A DNA stretch of 64,000 bases from contig JADKFY010000041.1 of NCBI GenBank assembly GCA_016717305.1, positions 878 through 64,877 on the forward strand, written 5' to 3'. Both the position numbers and the translations under genes were made by a program. This DNA comes from Flavobacteriales bacterium. Its GTDB lineage: Bacteria > Bacteroidota > Bacteroidia > Flavobacteriales_F > PHOS-HE28. Position 1 is the first letter of the stretch. Every line of letters begins with the position of its first letter. Below the pieces are notes generated by a model that saw only the letters and a program-made list of their open reading frames with translations, made no database searches and was not told the DNA's origin. Of this stretch, positions 167 to 60,205 are shown one piece after another.

Positions 167-303
167 CGCACAAGGTCGGCGCGCGTTGTCGGTTGTTGGT
201 TTGGACCGTCGCACAACGCCAGCGCACCCCATGAACCCGCCGAACGCGCGTGGCCTGCGCGACAGATGAACCAACAACAGACAACCGAAAACTGAGCAGC
301 CCA

Positions 304-4982: not shown

Positions 4983-5766
4983 TTACTCCCGTTCCAGCTT
5001 CAAGATCGAGGTGTGCAGAATGGTTCCGGCTACCTCTGCACGTACTAGATAGATCCCGGAAGACAGGGCGGATAGTGGCAACACCACCGCGTTCACGCCA
5101 TCGCCAACAGCCTGCCCTGTGGTGTGTACAACGCGACCTTGCACATCATGTACTGAAATGTTGACCCAACCATCCGCAACCCCGGTAACGCTGATCTTAG
5201 TGGCATCCACGAAAGGGTTTGGATATGCATGTAATGTGGCATCGGCATCCCTGAAAAAGGCCGTGATGGTACCGTTCATGGCAAACGAACGTTGAATGAC
5301 TTCCGAGGTGGAGGTGAATTGCTCCTCAGCGTATTCCCAATGATCGAAGATGAATCCCTCTTCAGCGAATGCGGATAGATCGATCGCGTTGCCATTGAAG
5401 TAAGTGCCTGTAAATGGGAGTTCCGGTTGCAAGCTGTTCAAGTGGATAGTACCTGCCCCTTCCGGGAATGCCGCGAATCGAAGTTCGGCCATGTTCGGAA
5501 GATCGTACCATTCCAAAACATCTTCACGCACAAGGTCCTGTCGTACCTCAGCGAACTGCGGAATGATCGTATATGCATGTTCTTGCCAATACCACTGGTC
5601 GCAGTTCCAACGCGCATAATGGCGCTCCATCTCTGGCGCTAGGAGTGACGTTCTTGGAACAAACCTCGCTGATCATAAGCTGTGCCTTTACATCGAACAC
5701 GCCGTAAACCATCACAGTGATGATCGCCTTTAGAAGCAACGCTCGGTATGGGTGTGGCTGGGACAT
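4983..5766 (-). pseudogene. Remnant of a CotH-like / T9SS type-A CTD protein (two overlapping frames)
   Basis: ORF 5548..5766 encodes an N-terminal piece (…VFDVKAQLMISEVCSKN…). ORF 4983..5630, in another frame, encodes a C-terminal piece ending with a T9SS-type CTD (…GIYLVRAEVAGTILHTSILKLERE). The combined length is far shorter than intact homologues. Confidence 0.4.
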
Positions 5767-5925
5767 GGATCCGTACCGCTAGACGTACAAATGTACCGGT
5801 ACGCTGTCCACAGCCTGTGCGAATTGTTGTGGTTCCGAGGGACGGGGTTGATCGGCACCTTACCGGCAACAATACGCTCTAAAACCGTCTTTGGAAGAGA
5901 TCGTCCAACACAGGTAGATCCCGCT

Positions 5926-7635
5926 TTAGATCCTCGCCTGATACGTGTACAGATCGAAATAGCGGCCTTCTTTCGCGATCAATTCATGGTGCGTGCCGCG
6001 TTCAGCGATCTTGCCATGTTCGATCACGAGGATCTCCGTGGCTTGCCGAATGGTGCTCAAACGGTGTGCGATCACAAAGGTGGTCCGGTCCTTCACTAGC
6101 TCGTTCAAACTTTTCTGGATCAAGGCTTCGCTCTCGGTGTCCAAGTTGCTGGTGGCTTCGTCCAAGATCAAGATCCGCGGATCAGCAAGCATGGCACGGG
6201 CGATCGCTACGCGCTGACGTTGGCCACCGCTCAATTTCACCCCGCGCTCGCCGATCACCGTGTCCAAGCCCAATTCGAAACGGTCCGTGAATTCATGTAC
6301 ATACGCTCCTTCAACCGCTTTGCGCAGTTGCTCTTCATTTGCATCCGGGCGTGGAAAGAGAATGTTCTCGCGGATCGTTCCTTCAAAAAGGAAGTCGTCC
6401 TGCAACACAACACCGAGGTGCTTTCGGTAGCTTGCTAATTGGATCTTACTAAGGTCCTGACCATCGATGGTGATCGTTCCAGTGGTAGGTGTAAGGAAGG
6501 TTGCCGCAAGACTGGCGATCGTGCTTTTGCCTGATCCCGAAGTGCCCACCAAGGCGATCACACTGCCTCTATTCGCATTGAAGCTGATGCCATGTAGTAC
6601 GGGCTTGCCTTCTTCATACTCGAAGGTCACGTCCTTGAAGGCAATGTCGCCATGCATCTTCTCCAGCACCACCGGCCGTTGGTCCGGATGGTCCTCCGGA
6701 TCCATGTTCATGATCTCCTCGGTACGGTCCAGCCCTGCGAAGGCCTCGGTGAATTGACTACCGATGTTGCTCATTTGCACGATCGGCGCGATCATGAAGC
6801 CAAGCAATACCGTGAATTGAAGGAAATCTCCGGTGGTCAGTTTATCGTCCACCATCATTGTAGCGCCGATCCCCATGATCCCTGCACTTGCCAAGCCGAG
6901 CAGCAAGGTGGACATACTGCTGATAAAGGAAGTGGCCGTGAGGCTTGTCTTCACATTCTCGAACAAACGTTCCACGCCCAGCTCGAAAGCCTTGTTCTCT
7001 TGTTCTTCCGCACCGAATCCCTTGATCACCCGCACACCATTCAAGGTTTCCGTTAGTCGCCCGGTCACTTCGGCATTGATCACGCCACGTGTACGGAACA
7101 CGGGCCGGATCCGCGCGAATGCCTTCATGGCCAAGAATGCGAAGATGCCTACAGGTACCAAGGTGAAGAGCGTCATCCACGGACTGATATGGATCAACCA
7201 GATCAGTGATGCCACAGCCGTAAGGATGCCGCCGACCAGTTGGACCAGCCCTGTGCCAACGAGGTTCCTCACGCCTTCCACATCCGTCATGATCCGGCTC
7301 ACCAGAGCACCGCTCTTCGTATTGTCGAAGAACCCGATCGGTAGTGAAAGTATCTTGCGTTGTACTTGGGTTCGAAGTTGACTGATCAAGTGTTGGGCCT
7401 CCACGCTGAGCAATTGGGTAAGTACATAGCTCGTAACACTTTGTACGATCAACGCGACCACCACCGCGATCAGCAGGATCTTGAGCATGCCCAAGTCGTG
7501 GTTCGCGACCACATCGTCCATCAAGTATTTCGTGGAACCGGGAAGTACCAGTCCCGCAGCTCTGCTCACGATGATCAGCAACAATCCGATGAACACGTGC
7601 TTGCGTCTCGGCCAAATGAACTGACGGAACGCCAT
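5926..7635 (-). CDS. ABC transporter, fused permease/ATP-binding protein (MsbA-like exporter)
   Basis: Six-TM N-domain, Walker A GTSGSGKST, LSGGQRQR signature and Walker B ILILDEAT. The maximal ORF extends to 7794, but its charged N-extension is not typical. The likely start is M54 at 7635 (MAFRQFIW...). Confidence 0.85.
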   Translation of the reverse strand: MAFRQFIWPRRKHVFIGLLLIIVSRAAGLVLPGSTKYLMDDVVANHDLGMLKILLIAVVVALIVQSVTSYVLTQLLSVEAQHLISQLRTQVQRKILSLPIGFFDNTKSGALVSRIMTDVEGVRNLVGTGLVQLVGGILTAVASLIWLIHISPWMTLFTLVPVGIFAFLAMKAFARIRPVFRTRGVINAEVTGRLTETLNGVRVIKGFGAEEQENKAFELGVERLFENVKTSLTATSFISSMSTLLLGLASAGIMGIGATMMVDDKLTTGDFLQFTVLLGFMIAPIVQMSNIGSQFTEAFAGLDRTEEIMNMDPEDHPDQRPVVLEKMHGDIAFKDVTFEYEEGKPVLHGISFNANRGSVIALVGTSGSGKSTIASLAATFLTPTTGTITIDGQDLSKIQLASYRKHLGVVLQDDFLFEGTIRENILFPRPDANEEQLRKAVEGAYVHEFTDRFELGLDTVIGERGVKLSGGQRQRVAIARAMLADPRILILDEATSNLDTESEALIQKSLNELVKDRTTFVIAHRLSTIRQATEILVIEHGKIAERGTHHELIAKEGRYFDLYTYQARI

Positions 7636-8049
7636 GCCCCATGTCACGCGGGATCTGGCTTTGGGAAGTTCGCCAGCAGCAGCTCGCATTTTGGCTCTAG
7701 GCCCGTTCATGCTGCGTTCAGCACGCGATGTGGACAATGGTCTTGCACTCAAATCAGTTGGTTTGGATGGTGCGCTGGGCAAGAGACGGGCCACACTTGG
7801 AAGTCGGTCGGATCGTCAGTTGTAGCGGCTGAGTGTTATAGGAATTGATCTTGGTCCAGATCCGTAGCGATGCCGAACGGCTCCGATGATCTTGCTTTCC
7901 GGCTTTGTCTTCTCACAGATCCCTGTATATTTCAAATCCTGTAACTACGCAAATCCCACTCTCCAACCATGGATGCGCACTTTAAGACACCGGCCATTTT
8001 ACGTATTTCCCGTTCAGGGAATTCTCATGCTCTCGTTAATGATCCAGTC

Positions 8050-18206: not shown

Positions 18207-18677
18207 TCAGTGTTCTGCTCGCTTCAGTTCTGTCCGGATAGCTCCGCCAGCCACGATTTTCCAAGTGACAGTGTAGACACCTGCACCATCGGAGAATCCG
18301 CCGGTGAGTATGTGCCCACCTTCACAAGGTTTGATCTCGAATTGGCCATCATGGATGGACAGGTCCCAACTCACATTGAACATGCCTGTGACATCCAAAG
18401 CTGTGCGCTTCCCACTGATCTCGATCATCAACGATCTGAAGTGATTACGCGGCATGCGGTAATCGAGGTCGGACCCGAAATAGGGTTGGCCATCAATGAG
18501 ACAGATCGGGTCATCTTGCCAATCCAGCACCTTGCAGTGCGTGACCGCGTGTGCTGTGGAATCAAACGGGACAACCTCTCCAGTGAGCTTGATATCATAG
18601 CCGAGGTCAATTGTCTGCCCTGCACTGGACATGACCAGCATCAGCAGATTCATTAGGGTGACCGCACGTCGTTTCAT
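18207..18677 (-). CDS. Secreted hypothetical protein (about 156 aa) immediately downstream of rayT
   Basis: Signal peptide MKRRAVTLMNLLMLVMSSAG. Its start codon overlaps the rayT stop (ATGA). No recognisable domain. Confidence 0.45.
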   Translation of the reverse strand: MKRRAVTLMNLLMLVMSSAGQTIDLGYDIKLTGEVVPFDSTAHAVTHCKVLDWQDDPICLIDGQPYFGSDLDYRMPRNHFRSLMIEISGKRTALDVTGMFNVSWDLSIHDGQFEIKPCEGGHILTGGFSDGAGVYTVTWKIVAGGAIRTELKRAEH

Positions 18678-19234
18678 CGCCAGTTCGATGGATTCTCCGC
18701 AATGTATTGCGCGATGCGCCCATATTCGCCGCCTTGTTGGCGGATGGCACGTTCGTAATACCCCGGTTGCCACAGGCGTTGCCCGGTGATTCCGTTCAGC
18801 CGGTTGATGCGTTTGGTCGTTTCCGATTTGAACGCCGCGATGATCGCGCCCAACGAACCGGGAACAGGTCCACGCGGTCTGGCCGGAACATCGTCCATCG
18901 CACGGTCATCGTCCAATGCACCCGTAGCGTCGACCCACTGGGTCGACCCATTGCCCACCGGCGGTACCAACGCAATGATCGCATGCAGATGATCCGGCAT
19001 GACCTGCGTTTGGTCCAATCGCGCGTGCTGGAAATGACCCGGTATCGCGCGCCAGCATTCATCCACCATGCGGCCCACGTCGTTCAATTCCATCAGCGCA
19101 TCCGTTCCGTCGCCTACGATACGCCCGAACAATTCCTGCCGCTGTGCGGTGCACAACGTCACGAAATACGCACCCTGCCGGTAATCGTTTCCACGCAGGC
19201 GAATGTGTTTGTGGTATTTCGGCGGTTGGCCCAT
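18674..19234 (-). CDS. rayT: REP-associated tyrosine transposase (RayT / TnpA_REP, IS200-like HuH Y1 family)
   Basis: N-terminus HKHIRLRGNDYRQGAYFVTLCT, HuH motif PDHLHAIIAL, C-terminal catalytic-Tyr region RLWQPGYYERAIR. It also carries a 27-nt REP-like insert encoding [11 protein letters not shown]. Confidence 0.8.
   Translation of the reverse strand: MGQPPKYHKHIRLRGNDYRQGAYFVTLCTAQRQELFGRIVGDGTDALMELNDVGRMVDECWRAIPGHFQHARLDQTQVMPDHLHAIIALVPPVGNGSTQWVDATGALDDDRAMDDVPARPRGPVPGSLGAIIAAFKSETTKRINRLNGITGQRLWQPGYYERAIRQQGGEYGRIAQYIAENPSNWR
18924..18950 (+). repeat. REP-like 27-nt palindromic element, copy 1 (inside rayT coding sequence, in-frame)
   Basis: GTAGCGTCGACCCACTGGGTCGACCCA. The core GTCGACCCA-C-TGGGTCGAC is a perfect 9+1+9 palindrome. 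Confidence 0.6.
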
Positions 19235-19238
19235 CGCA

Positions 19239-19963
19239 TCACGGGTCGACCCAGTGGGTCGACGCTACGTCGGCGTTGATCAGGATCCACGTTCCATCAA
19301 TCGCCTCAATGATCCCCTTCGCCGCCACCGGGATCTTCGTCCCCGGCCCGTACACATCAAAACACCCGGCCTGCTTGAGGAAGTCGTAGTCGTTCGGCGG
19401 GATCACGCCACCGGCCACCACGAGGATGTCGGGGCGCTTGTAGGTCTCGCGCAGTTCCTTGATCACCTCGGGCACCAAGGTCTTGTGGCCACCGGCGAGG
19501 CTGCTGATGCCCAGCACGTGCACGTCGTTCTCGATGGCCTGCTTGGCCACTTCCTGCGGCGTCTGGAACAGCGGACCGATGTCCACGTCGAAGCCGATGT
19601 CGGCGAAGCTGGTGGCGATCACCTTGGCGCCGCGGTCGTGCCCGTCCTGGCCCATCTTGGCCACGAGGATGCGCGGGCGGCGGCCTTCCGCCTTGGCGAA
19701 TTCATCGGCGAGGCGCATGGCCTCCTTCATCTCGGGGTCCTGCATGCTTTCCGCTGAGTAAACACCGCTGATGCTGCGGATGGTGGCGCTGTAACGGCCG
19801 AAGGCTTTTTCGAAGGCGTCGCTGATCTCCCCGAGGGTAGCTCGGTGGCGGGCGGCGATAACGGCGAGTTCCAAGAGGTTTGCCTGAGCTCGGTTGGCTT
19901 GTCGTCGCTCGTGGCTCGTGGCGTCAAGGCTCGCGGCCGCAGTCAACGCCTGCAACGCCTCCT

Positions 19964-19967
<4 letters not shown>
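19239..19967 (-). CDS. Methylmalonyl-CoA mutase C-terminal cobalamin-binding domain (continuation of upstream ORF after frameshift at about 19965)
   Basis: [65 protein letters not shown] is the canonical DxHxxG B12-binding domain. The N-terminus MKEALQALT... aligns with the MutB linker. A 4-bp overlap with the preceding ORF implies a single gene with a frameshift. Confidence 0.7.
19242..19268 (-). repeat. REP-like 27-nt palindromic element, copy 2 (inverted, between rayT start and MCM 3' end)
   Basis: Reverse complement reads GTAGCGTCGACCCACTGGGTCGACCCG, 26/27 identical to copy 1 and in opposite orientation. Confidence 0.6.
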
Positions 19968-22510
<2,543 letters not shown>

Positions 22511-58114: not shown

Positions 58115-60205
58115 ATGCCCACGCTGACCACCGAAGACCGTCAACTCCATTTCGAACGCGGTACCCATTCCAATGATTTCCTGATCGGTGCCTACGTACG
58201 GTTGGTGCGGCCACGGATCATCGAGGAAAAGATGTTGAGCCTATTGCGTCAAGGTAAGATCAGCAAATGGTTCAGCGGGATCGGTCAGGAAGCGATCAGT
58301 GTAGGTGCCGCCATGGCCCTGCATCCGGATGAGTACATCCTGCCCATGCACCGCAACTTGGGTGTTTTCACCACGCGCGATATGCCTTTCCGGAAACTAT
58401 TCGCCCAATGGCAAGGCAAGGCGACGGGTTACAGCAAAGGACGTGAACGCAGTTTCCATTTCGGGAGCCAAGAGCACAAGATCGTGGGCATGATCAGCCA
58501 TTTGGGTCCCCAGTTGGGTATCGCGGATGGCATTGCCTTGGCCCATAAACTGAAGAAGGAGAACCGCTGCACGATCGTCTTTACCGGCGATGGTGCCACC
58601 AGTGAAGGGGATTTCCATGAAAGCCTTAACGTGGCGGCGGTGTGGGAACTGCCCGTCCTCTTTATCATTGAGAACAACGGCTACGGATTGAGCACGCCTA
58701 GTCGCGAACAGTTCCGCATGGAACATTTCACCGACAAGGCCATTGGTTACGGCATGGAGACGGTGCAGATCGCAGGCAACAACATCTTGGAGGTGTACAA
58801 CAACATTGCGCGCTTGGCCGATAGTGTTCGCGAGAACCCGCGCCCGATCCTAGTGGAATGCATCACCTTCCGCATGCGTGGCCATGAAGAAGCCAGTGGC
58901 ACCAAGTATGTGCCCAAGGAACTGTTCGAAGTGTGGGGCAAGAAGGACCCCGTAGCCAATTACGAAGCCTGGCTGATCAAGCAGGGGATCCTTTCCATTG
59001 AAGAACGCGATGCTATTCGTCATGGGATCAAGGACGGGATCGAAGAGGACATCAAGCACGCCTTCGAAGAACCCGAACCGGAACCGGTGCAGGAGATCGA
59101 AATGGGGGATGTATATGCAGTAGCGCCGAATTCCACCTTTGGCACCGGTAGCGTCGACCCACTGGGTCGACCTACGGAGAACAGTGGCGCACAACCCGAA
59201 AAGCGATTCATCGATGCCATCCAAGAAGCCATGTTCCAAAGCATGGAACGCTACCCGCAATTGGTGTTGATGGGGCAGGACATTGCCGAGTATGGCGGTG
59301 CGTTCAAGATCACCGAAGGATTCGTGGAACGCTTCGGAAAGGACCGCGTTCGCAATACGCCACTGTGCGAAAGTGCGATCGTGGGCGCAGCATATGGACT
59401 TAGTGTGAAGGGCATGAAGGCCATGATGGAAATGCAGTTCGCCGATTTCGTGAGCGAAGGCATGACGCAGATCTGCAATGTGCTTGCGAAGAGCCACTAC
59501 CGCTGGGGCCAGAACGCCGATGTGGTGATCCGGATGCCTACAGGTGCTGGAGTAGGAGCAGGACCCTTCCACAGCCAGAGCAACGAAATGTGGTTCGTGA
59601 AAACCGCAGGATTGAAAGTGGTGTACCCGAGCAACCCGTTTGATGCGAAGGGCTTGCTCATGACCGCTTTCGAAGACCCCAATCCAGTGATGTTCTTCGA
59701 GCACAAAGCGATGTACCGAAGTGTGACCGGTCCTGTGCCAACGGAGCCGTACAGCATTCCTTTCGGCAAGGCACGTGTGGTGCGCGAAGCAGAAGCGACC
59801 CGTCACGACAGCCCTGTTTCCCTAAGCGTGATCACCTACGGCATGGGTGTACATTGGGCCACGGAATTGGCAGCTTCACTGGCGGATCGTTCGGTGGAAG
59901 ACGGAGGACCGATCGATATGGAGATCATCGACCTGCGCACCTTGGTACCGTTGGATCTGGATACGATCATTGCGAGCGTGAAAAAGACCGGCAAGGCATT
60001 GGTGTTACACGAGGACACCTTGACCGGCGGTTTCGGAGGTGAATTAAGTGCGCTGATCAACGAACATTGCTTCGATCATTTGGATGCACCTATCGTTCGT
60101 GTGGCGAGTTGGGATACGCCTGTGCCATTTGCCATTCCGTTGGAGAAAGGATTTCTGCCGAAGACGCGGTTTTGGGAAGCGGTGGAACGGTTGGCTGGGT
60201 TTTGA
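58115..60205 (+). CDS. TPP-dependent 2-oxoacid (pyruvate/branched-chain) dehydrogenase E1 component, fused alpha and beta subunits
   Basis: 696 aa. Alpha-domain TPP motif GDGATSEGDFHESLNVAAVW…, linker, then beta/transketolase-like domain. Contains the in-frame REP-like insert GSVDPLGRP. Confidence 0.85.
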   Translation: MPTLTTEDRQLHFERGTHSNDFLIGAYVRLVRPRIIEEKMLSLLRQGKISKWFSGIGQEAISVGAAMALHPDEYILPMHRNLGVFTTRDMPFRKLFAQWQGKATGYSKGRERSFHFGSQEHKIVGMISHLGPQLGIADGIALAHKLKKENRCTIVFTGDGATSEGDFHESLNVAAVWELPVLFIIENNGYGLSTPSREQFRMEHFTDKAIGYGMETVQIAGNNILEVYNNIARLADSVRENPRPILVECITFRMRGHEEASGTKYVPKELFEVWGKKDPVANYEAWLIKQGILSIEERDAIRHGIKDGIEEDIKHAFEEPEPEPVQEIEMGDVYAVAPNSTFGTGSVDPLGRPTENSGAQPEKRFIDAIQEAMFQSMERYPQLVLMGQDIAEYGGAFKITEGFVERFGKDRVRNTPLCESAIVGAAYGLSVKGMKAMMEMQFADFVSEGMTQICNVLAKSHYRWGQNADVVIRMPTGAGVGAGPFHSQSNEMWFVKTAGLKVVYPSNPFDAKGLLMTAFEDPNPVMFFEHKAMYRSVTGPVPTEPYSIPFGKARVVREAEATRHDSPVSLSVITYGMGVHWATELAASLADRSVEDGGPIDMEIIDLRTLVPLDLDTIIASVKKTGKALVLHEDTLTGGFGGELSALINEHCFDHLDAPIVRVASWDTPVPFAIPLEKGFLPKTRFWEAVERLAGF
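59148..59174 (+). repeat. REP-like 27-nt palindromic element, copy 3 (in-frame inside the E1 alpha-beta linker)
   Basis: GTAGCGTCGACCCACTGGGTCGACCTA, encoding GSVDPLGRP between the alpha and beta domains of the fused E1. Confidence 0.6.

Follow-up and report, generated by a model that had tools for sequence, protein, structure and literature searches.

A palindrome between the alpha and beta parts of an E1 dehydrogenase fusion is probably a tolerated copy of a GTAG-footed REP family from uncultured Flavobacteriales

Our analysis of 64,000 nucleotides (nt) from a Flavobacteriales bacterium (GenBank assembly GCA_016717305.1, contig JADKFY010000041.1, positions 878 to 64,877 of the forward strand; the whole stretch is referred to below as the window) centres on a short palindrome that is read in frame within the open reading frame (ORF) of a fused E1 alpha/beta 2-oxoacid dehydrogenase. 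We consider it probable that this segment is a copy of a repetitive extragenic palindromic (REP) family with a GTAG foot that belongs to an uncultured Flavobacteriales clade, that the family is linked to a gene for a REP-associated tyrosine transposase (RAYT), here called rayT, and that the E1 copy is selfish DNA tolerated by its host protein. An initial annotation of the window had placed a REP-like palindrome in frame in the alpha/beta linker of E1, and the ORF itself, the gap between its Pfam domains and three copies of the element in the window all agree with that placement. The coordinates of the features discussed are collected in Table 1.

Table 1. Features of the window and of related loci (window coordinates unless a locus is named)
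Feature	Position	Strand	Basis or remark
Fused E1 alpha/beta 2-oxoacid dehydrogenase ORF, 696 residues, host gene	58115..60205	+	ORF, Pfam, orthologues
Interdomain linker of E1, residues 325-365; its length and content are hypervariable across orthologues	59087..59209	+	gap between Pfam domains; alignment
REP element, 33-nt 'double-foot' hairpin, CCGGTAG-C-GTCGACCC-ACT-GGGTCGAC-CTACGG	59145..59177	+	folding, foot consensus
27-mer copy, reference (E1 linker), GTAGCGTCGACCCACTGGGTCGACCTA	59148-59174	+	
Perfect 19-nt palindromic core, GTCGACCCACTGGGTCGAC (GTCGACCCA-C-TGGGTCGAC)	59153..59171	+	exact core search
27-mer copy	18924-18950	+	1 mismatch
27-mer copy	19242-19268	-	2 mismatches
rayT, tnpA-REP-like Y1 transposase, 186 residues (DHLH 81-84, WQ 155-156, YIAENP 177-182)	18674..19234	-	motifs, profiles
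REP copy (foot GCACCCGTAGC and core) inside the rayT ORF, antisense to rayT	18918..18947	+	
REP copy (core and GTAGC foot), located 10 nt before the rayT ATG	19245..19268	-	
GTTGTC-type site	~185-210		
GTTGTC-type site	L034 2600-2730		
GTTGTC-type site	L117 7630-7720		
GTTGTC-type site	L006 ~5350-5410		
GTTGTC-type site	L098 ~7040-7780		
GTTGTC-type repeats in E1 linkers	L122, L128, L146		

With up to 3 mismatches allowed, the 27-mer in the E1 linker has exactly three copies in the window including itself, and none of 100 dinucleotide-preserving shuffles gave a match, which rules out a chance match. The three copies had been described as identical over 27 of 27 positions, whereas we find 26/27 and 25/27 for the other two; identity is restricted to the 19-nt core (GTCGACCCANTGGGTCGAC), which is perfect in all three copies (0.04 expected by chance) and in each of them is preceded by GTAG one base ahead of the stem. 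Nor is 27 nt the size of the element. What folds is a 33-nt hairpin with a GC-rich stem of 8-9 bp and paired GTAG/CTAC feet, at -12.1 kcal/mol as DNA (z = -3.8) and -20.9 kcal/mol as RNA (z = -3.5), and thus a stem-loop palindrome in the short (20-40 bp) range of REPs. If the 5' consensus of the family (GCACC, see below) is included, the E1 element begins at 59142 and covers 36 nt (59142-59177), which encode the 12 residues G343-T354 (GGC ACC GGT AGC GTC GAC CCA CTG GGT CGA CCT ACG). The earlier count of exactly 9 codons does not hold, since the 27-mer itself starts at codon position 2; the insert amounts to about 11-12 codons. Five of the six reading frames of the element are open, and a search of 58900-59400 for known structured RNA returned no Rfam match at E <= 1.

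The host ORF combines E1_dh (residues 34-324), the alpha part that binds thiamine pyrophosphate, with the beta parts Transket_pyr (366-535) and Transketolase_C (570-683), all in one ORF and in the order that defines a fused E1 alpha/beta. It gives partial matches to the NCBIfam models of pyruvate dehydrogenase E1 alpha and beta, and some of its orthologues are named 'dehydrogenase E1 component subunit alpha/beta' or '2-oxoisovalerate dehydrogenase E1 component' at source. The REP element, at residues ~343-354, falls in the gap between E1_dh and Transket_pyr. In an alignment of 120 intact E1 orthologues (75-99% identity) this linker is the sole hypervariable stretch, and an AlphaFold2 (AF2) model of E1 gives predicted local distance difference test (pLDDT) values below 50 at residues 319-366 and no secondary structure at 334-364. 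Being located outside the Pfam domains, hypervariable and modelled with low confidence, the linker appears to be unconstrained and, judged from its states among close relatives (see below), a permissive site of fast turnover.

Evidence that the E1 segment is one member of a dispersed family comes from an exact-match scan for the 19-nt core with one genome per species, the figures of which refer to the matches listed and are lower bounds. At least 118 loci carry the core. About 107 of the matches listed stem from at least 49 species-level metagenome-assembled genomes (MAGs) named 'Flavobacteriales bacterium' or assigned to Bacteroidota, and the rest (Rhodococcus, Acidobacteriota and other taxa) are chance matches without a foot. 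Together these MAGs hold at least 124 perfect-core copies, with up to 9 loci listed for a single MAG. The foot 5' of the stem is asymmetric and conserved, its consensus over 133 feet being GCACCYGTA(G/C)C; the variable base is G in 63 and C in 51 of them, so that ~40% read GTAC and depart from the textbook GT[AG]G. Copies with a single foot prevail among the 124 listed (85), followed by double-foot (24) and footless ones (15); the E1 copy belongs to the double-foot group.

As for location, 77 of the 124 listed copies (~62%) are intergenic or unclassified, 19 (~15%) sit at gene 3' ends and 28 are in frame and internal to coding sequence. These classes derive from a test for spanning ORFs combined with a codon-usage test whose frame accuracy is 75% on 150-nt windows, and the counts are approximate. 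Among the 28 internal copies, ~5 are those of rayT and ~3 look spurious on inspection (at least L052, L062 and L001:3696; here and below, L numbers denote loci of related genomes), which leaves ~20 in genuine genes; the intragenic share is about 20% of the sampled copies. The scan for in-frame copies in other genes that had been suggested with the initial annotation thus adds some 20 further cases from related genomes. Intragenic hosts confirmed by Pfam comprise a PIF1-type helicase, two DNA polymerase III alpha subunits (DnaE), the HATPase_c domain of a histidine kinase, LpxK, a UPF0176/TrhO-like protein, GatB, allantoicase and a copper P-type ATPase (CopA), and in these hosts Pfam domains flank the insert on both sides or span it. 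Some insertion sites are common to orthologues of different species (L077/L085/L110, L011/L060 and L096/L102). The same ~30 nt of element DNA recur between genes and are elsewhere read in three other frames (one of them giving RPIGST), and in some 3'-end copies the TAG of the foot is the stop codon of the gene.

Intragenic copies (L011-L112) show a bias in orientation and frame: in 19 of the 21 well-supported ones the sense strand has the GTAG foot on the 5' side, and the peptide is VDPLGR in 14 of these and STHWVD in the other 5. This could reflect tolerance at the level of the peptide or, alternatively, strand-specific insertion in combination with a gene-strand bias.

About 40 kb from the E1 copy, the window encodes a candidate enzyme for the family. 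The rayT product has its HuH, W and catalytic-Y motifs in the order expected for RAYT/TnpA-REP proteins, and its top NCBIfam match is NF047646 (REP_Tyr_transpos) at 51.6 bits, where the curated cut-off is 80. Its match to Pfam Y1_Tnp is marginal (23.5, cut-off 23), and the sole match in the Protein Data Bank is a weak one to E. coli TnpA-REP (4ER8), in which the HuH and WQ regions align. We therefore treat the product as a divergent relative of RAYTs rather than as a certified equivalog. The gene is bracketed by its own REPs, one upstream of the ATG and the other, inverted relative to it, inside the ORF, where it is read as residues 96-105 between DHLH and YIAENP. The distance of ~40 kb between the E1 copy and rayT given by the initial annotation stands, with the amendment that one of the rayT copies lies inside the rayT ORF while the other encodes the tail of a mutase (see below). 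This layout is shared with rayT at 15 other loci, each with a REP just upstream of the ATG and an inverted REP ~316-480 nt further on, inside the ORF. The in-ORF REP is kept in every rayT orthologue recovered, be these intact (L018, L001, L050, L124, L137, L143, L146, L153) or frameshifted with the same REP layout (L003, L038, L081, L135, L140), for which assembly error may in part be responsible.

In several genomes (e.g. L153 and L140) the loop sequences of the two rayT REPs co-vary. The gene occupies two alternative conserved neighbourhoods, downstream of E1 or downstream of a methylmalonyl-CoA mutase gene: a REP-bracketed rayT follows the E1 stop by ~50-500 nt in eight relatives (L124, L135, L136, L137, L140, L143, L146, L153), and the mutase gene precedes rayT in the window, L003, L018, L001 and L038.

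Comparison of E1 orthologues shows that the segment comes and goes at this site. Many of the 120 carry T(R/G)(S/T)VDPxGR(P) at the same place and in the same orientation and frame, and many others (e.g. P0006 and the P0018/P0021 clade) are without it. Further out, 49 distant orthologues (60-64% identity, L155-L203) are all fused, with linkers 11-13 residues shorter, and their alignment gap falls exactly over the 12-residue segment encoded by the REP. None of the 49 has a REP in its linker, and a single one (L177) has an insert of the GTTGTC type described below. The indel among orthologues that the initial annotation had proposed as a check is therefore seen twice over, as presence or absence among the 120 and as shorter linkers in the distant fused proteins. 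Given that the latter are all fused, short in the linker and free of REPs, the fusion is old and the REP a later addition of ~11-12 codons. Occurrence of the segment in genomes devoid of REPs had been named as the finding that would speak against a REP origin; segment-bearing orthologues are, instead, from REP-bearing genomes, and the MAG of L055, for one, also yielded L070, L071, L084, L091, L098 and L109.

Among close relatives, the linker is found in states that range from an intact copy to none at all. An independent JGI metagenome contig (L125, 99% identity) has a linker identical to that of the window; in L130 and L120 the tip of this same copy is mutated; L126 and L127 have the flanks of the window but two degenerate REP copies; L124 and L129 each hold the variant GTCGACCCTCAGGGTCGAC in two perfect copies; L141, L153 and L134 have single stem mismatches; and L119, L121 and L138 have no element in the linker. 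In L143 a 15-nt palindrome is nested in the REP arm and the whole is still in frame. This nested palindrome (6030-6053, left arm, TCCGATATGCATCGG) adds five in-frame codons (VRYAS) and has no other copies in the DNA examined.

The closest relative of the window (L128, 91.1% nucleotide identity with the linker masked) has no REP; its linker contains a hairpin of GTTGTC heptads instead, and the same contrast between REP and GTTG-type insert is found between L124 and L131 (89.2% nucleotide identity). GTTGTC(N) heptads paired with GACAAC(N) heptads represent a second type of dispersed palindromic repeat, which occurs in intergenic DNA too; in frame, it reads SQLSVV...TDNQQLTT. A third type comprises imperfect hairpins of ~70 nt (-50 to -62 kcal/mol) in the E1 linkers of L123, L135, L137, L140, L144 and L151, for which the DNA examined yielded no copies outside E1 linkers. 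These hairpins read as LEPLATSHELEASG.. or LSPLATGPLEGRASSQW.. at the protein level. In a neighbour-joining (NJ) tree of the E1 proteins (76-89% identical) the linker states are interleaved, and this tree is poorly resolved, so that events cannot be counted; two switches between REP and GTTG type (window/L128 and L124/L131) are nonetheless secure from the nucleotide identities of the close pairs. The insertion in the window lineage predates its split from L126 and L130, with which the window has alignable flanks in common, and the element was replaced in L128. Around the element, the linker of the window has strongly diverged from that of L055, whose core is perfect too.

Taken together, we favour the following history. 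RayT would mobilise the REP by single-strand cleavage next to the GTAG foot, in the way of IS200/IS605-type HuH enzymes, a role that we infer from the linkage of gene and repeats. A copy would have inserted in the E1 fusion gene where the protein may be a mere tether between two folded domains and, with an insert length that is a multiple of three and a stop-free frame in use, the gene would have stayed intact, the copy being inherited as ~11-12 extra linker residues rich in Gly, Pro and Ser. Only frame-preserving inserts in loops or linkers would survive selection, and the copies observed would be the filtered remainder. On this basis the peptide is presumably translated and neutral, and the E1 copy would most likely serve no purpose of its own in the linker and be tolerated as selfish DNA. 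Signs of past movement are indirect (presence/absence, duplicates, nested insert), and the linker seems to behave like intergenic DNA in that palindromes have been gained, duplicated, degraded, interrupted and swapped in close relatives. That the REP family can enter coding sequence as tolerated in-frame inserts, a suggestion of the initial annotation, gains support from the E1 indel and the other hosts alike.

Several observations weigh against tolerated selfish DNA with a linked transposase. The AF2 model of E1 is poor overall (mean pLDDT 64), which makes it weak support for a disordered linker. Removal of the REP-bearing loop from the rayT product allows an end-to-end alignment with the NCBIfam model, yet the score (55.9 bits) still stays below the cut-off of 80. 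The window copy is a perfect palindrome though those of L126 and L130 have decayed, and two variants, GTCGACGC-ATC-GCGTCGAC in L147 and CCCT.AGGG in L124, have kept perfect stems through paired changes, which leaves room for a constraint on the hairpin. Finally, no empty-site allele alignable at the nucleotide level was found among the orthologues, the nearest REP-less relative (L128) holding another element and the REP-free L119 and L121 not aligning in the linker, so that the ends given for the insert are approximate.

The paired changes just mentioned are also what a hairpin selected for function at the alpha/beta boundary would predict, be it as a translational pause, as protection of the mRNA from decay or in a role of the DNA. 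In line with such a function, at least three unrelated palindrome types (REP, GTTGTC heptads, long hairpins) occupy the same linker in different lineages, and the core of the window is intact even though the linker around it has diverged so strongly from that of L055. However, many orthologues manage without any palindrome (L119, the L121/L138 clade and all of those with 60-64% identity), stems are broken in L126 (both copies), L130, L141, L153 and L134, and the L143 copy is split by its nested insert. Since the same REP is found in loops of many unrelated proteins, a permissive-site filter provides the better fit, and we regard a boundary function as quite improbable. Even less credence goes to the linker being an actively targeted hot spot, whether by way of a target motif, an existing hairpin or the adjacency of rayT to E1. 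It would account for the interleaving of element states across the E1 tree, for the switches within pairs as close as 91% (window/L128) and 89% (L124/L131), for the double copies in L124, L129, L126 and L127 with the nested palindrome of L143, and it could draw on the eight loci that have rayT directly downstream of E1. Yet elements are stacked at other permissive sites as well (the DnaE-like ORFs of L025 and L045, CopA of L096), just as selection alone predicts, whether rayT is adjacent shows no correlation with the presence of a linker REP (L135, L137 and L146 hold other elements) and poor resolution of the tree makes the number of events uncertain. Put more broadly, the proposition that the linker is a recurrent target of, or a selected position for, DNA or RNA hairpins beyond mere permissiveness strikes us as unlikely; its basis is that at least three palindrome types have been interchanged between genomes ~9-11% apart at the nucleotide level and that some REP stems are compensated. 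If true, it would imply either insertion directed by a hairpin or target, of which the nested palindrome in L143 might be an instance, or a role for structure at the domain boundary (e.g. co-translational pausing), and REP-type elements would regularly supply housekeeping proteins across the clade with peptides for loops and linkers.

Two further explanations carry next to no weight with us. REPs are common between co-directional genes (PMC3733652) and the element lies exactly at the alpha/beta junction, so it might be thought a relic of an intercistronic REP, captured when separate E1-alpha and E1-beta genes fused. We reject this because the distant orthologues place the fusion long before the insertion - all 49 of them are already fused, with short linkers and no REP - and the REP is restricted to a shallow and patchy subset of the 75-99% group. 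Recurrence of (T)(R)(S/T)VDPLGR(P/H) in many proteins might likewise be taken for a conserved peptide motif (SVDPLGRP) with a role at the protein level. This, too, is rejected, as one and the same DNA is translated in any of four frames and is also present in intergenic copies, and as intergenic, other-frame and other-strand copies are identical in DNA including synonymous positions and the foot, which looks untranslated. Similarly negligible is a chance or assembly artefact, against which stand the shuffles (0/100), the same insert in the JGI contig L125 (99%) and a database cluster that draws on NCBI, JGI and ENA.

A GT[AG]G-type foot beside a GC-rich hairpin is the signature of REPs that are recognised by RAYTs (PMC3733652, PMC6006769). 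Di Nocera, De Gregorio and Rocco (2013, BMC Genomics 14:522, PMC3733652) described GTAG and CGTC REPs, some of which lie wholly within ORFs, often of genes for replication and repair (dnaE and dnaE2 among them), with the TAG of the foot sometimes serving as stop codon; they proposed neutrality, with tolerance 'in flexible linkers or loops', and noted a relation to elements from Rickettsia. Our family resembles their GTAG REPs in its GTAG-foot palindrome, its RAYT link, the apparently mostly extragenic location of the copies sampled, with an in-frame minority, its dnaE hosts and its TAG stops. It differs in having GTAG or GTAC feet and in residing in Flavobacteriales MAGs; the GTAG repeats of their survey came from Proteobacteria, Cyanobacteria, Chloroflexi and the PVC group, and Bacteroidetes yielded only CGTC repeats. 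Compared to that survey, the intragenic share seen here (~20% of sampled copies) looks high, and neither an E1 linker as host nor turnover of several families at one site is described there.

In-frame REPs inside tnpA-REP genes, between HuH and Y, were reported by Quentin, Siguier, Chandler and Fichant (2018, BMC Genomics 19:475, PMC6006769), whose subclass 2.4 has some double-foot REPs (5' GT[AG]G ... C[TC]AC 3'), an enlarged HuH-to-Y spacing and an abundance in Bacteroidetes. The rayT of the window is like subclass 2.4 in the position of its in-frame REP but unlike it in its motifs, DHLH and YIAENP as opposed to NH[IFV]H and YIxNNP; by comparison with the published motif table, its DHLH/WQ/YIAENP set fits the pattern of subclass 2.5 (DH[LF]H, WQ, YI[VI]ANP) better. 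As in REPIN-RAYT systems (Bertels and Rainey 2011, PMC3116915; Nunvar et al. 2010, PMC2817692), REPs are dispersed, rayT is bracketed by inverted REPs and the arrangement is common to related species. Classic REPINs, however, are inverted extragenic REP doublets, whereas most copies sampled here appear to be singlets, and a good part of them lie in coding sequence.

Rickettsia palindromic elements (RPEs) are in-frame palindromes in many housekeeping genes, the proteins of which are, according to Ogata et al. (2000) in the account given by PMC3733652, probably still functional. CGTC repeats, to which RPE-4 and RPE-6 are assigned, are apparently without a dedicated transposase (PMC3733652). The likeness between RPEs and the element in E1 is functional only, in that both are palindromic inserts in frame, and we do not file our element as an RPE. 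RPEs are longer (~100-150 bp) and their hosts are obligate intracellular alpha-proteobacteria, as distinct from an element of 33-36 nt with a linked rayT.

Seen against this background, the principle that REPs may be tolerated inside genes, put forward by the initial annotation, had already appeared in print, in 2000 (RPEs), 2013 (intragenic REPs, in PMC3733652 already located to linkers or loops) and 2018 (REPs inside tnpA-REP genes). What is new is a REP/RAYT family with GTAG or GTAC feet in uncultured Flavobacteriales with a fairly high intragenic share of copies, and a single linker in which several palindrome families are deposited and replace each other between close relatives; literature searches for closer precedents turned up nothing more specific. 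GTAG-type REP/RAYT systems and intragenic REPs are thereby extended to Bacteroidota. Our findings also mean that free-living bacteria from the environment can harbour small selfish DNA hairpins in conserved metabolic and housekeeping genes, where these hairpins lengthen linkers and loops. Annotation and modelling of these MAGs should, as a consequence, expect segments of 10-25 residues ('VDPLGRP', 'STHWVD', 'QLSVV..TDNQQ') that are derived from repeats and are not functional motifs. In addition, one linker with several families and with copies that range from intact to decayed offers a natural experiment in which rates of REP gain, decay and replacement are measurable.

Two side observations concern other coding sequences. 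The DnaE-like ORF of L045 (REP at 5836) combines two REP-derived peptides with a GTTGTC-type stretch and a tandem 13-residue repeat (GLTRRREGAKGAE) around a run of N, which points either to an extreme load of coding repeats or to an assembly problem. Upstream of rayT in the window, methylmalonyl-CoA mutase is distributed over an ORF of 848 residues (19964-22510) and a B12-domain ORF of 242 residues (19239-19967), which overlap by GTGA (19964-19967) in different frames. The small ORF aligns to positions 508-715 of a single 721-residue NCBIfam model of methylmalonyl-CoA mutase, and the split could be a true division of the gene or else stem from a frameshift or from an error in sequencing. Its tail (..ASTHWVDP*) is encoded by the REP upstream of rayT, and the homologue of this B12-domain gene in L018 stops at the TAG of the GTAG foot of the REP. 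With both the tail and the stop being read from a REP, it appears that these elements also remodel C-termini.

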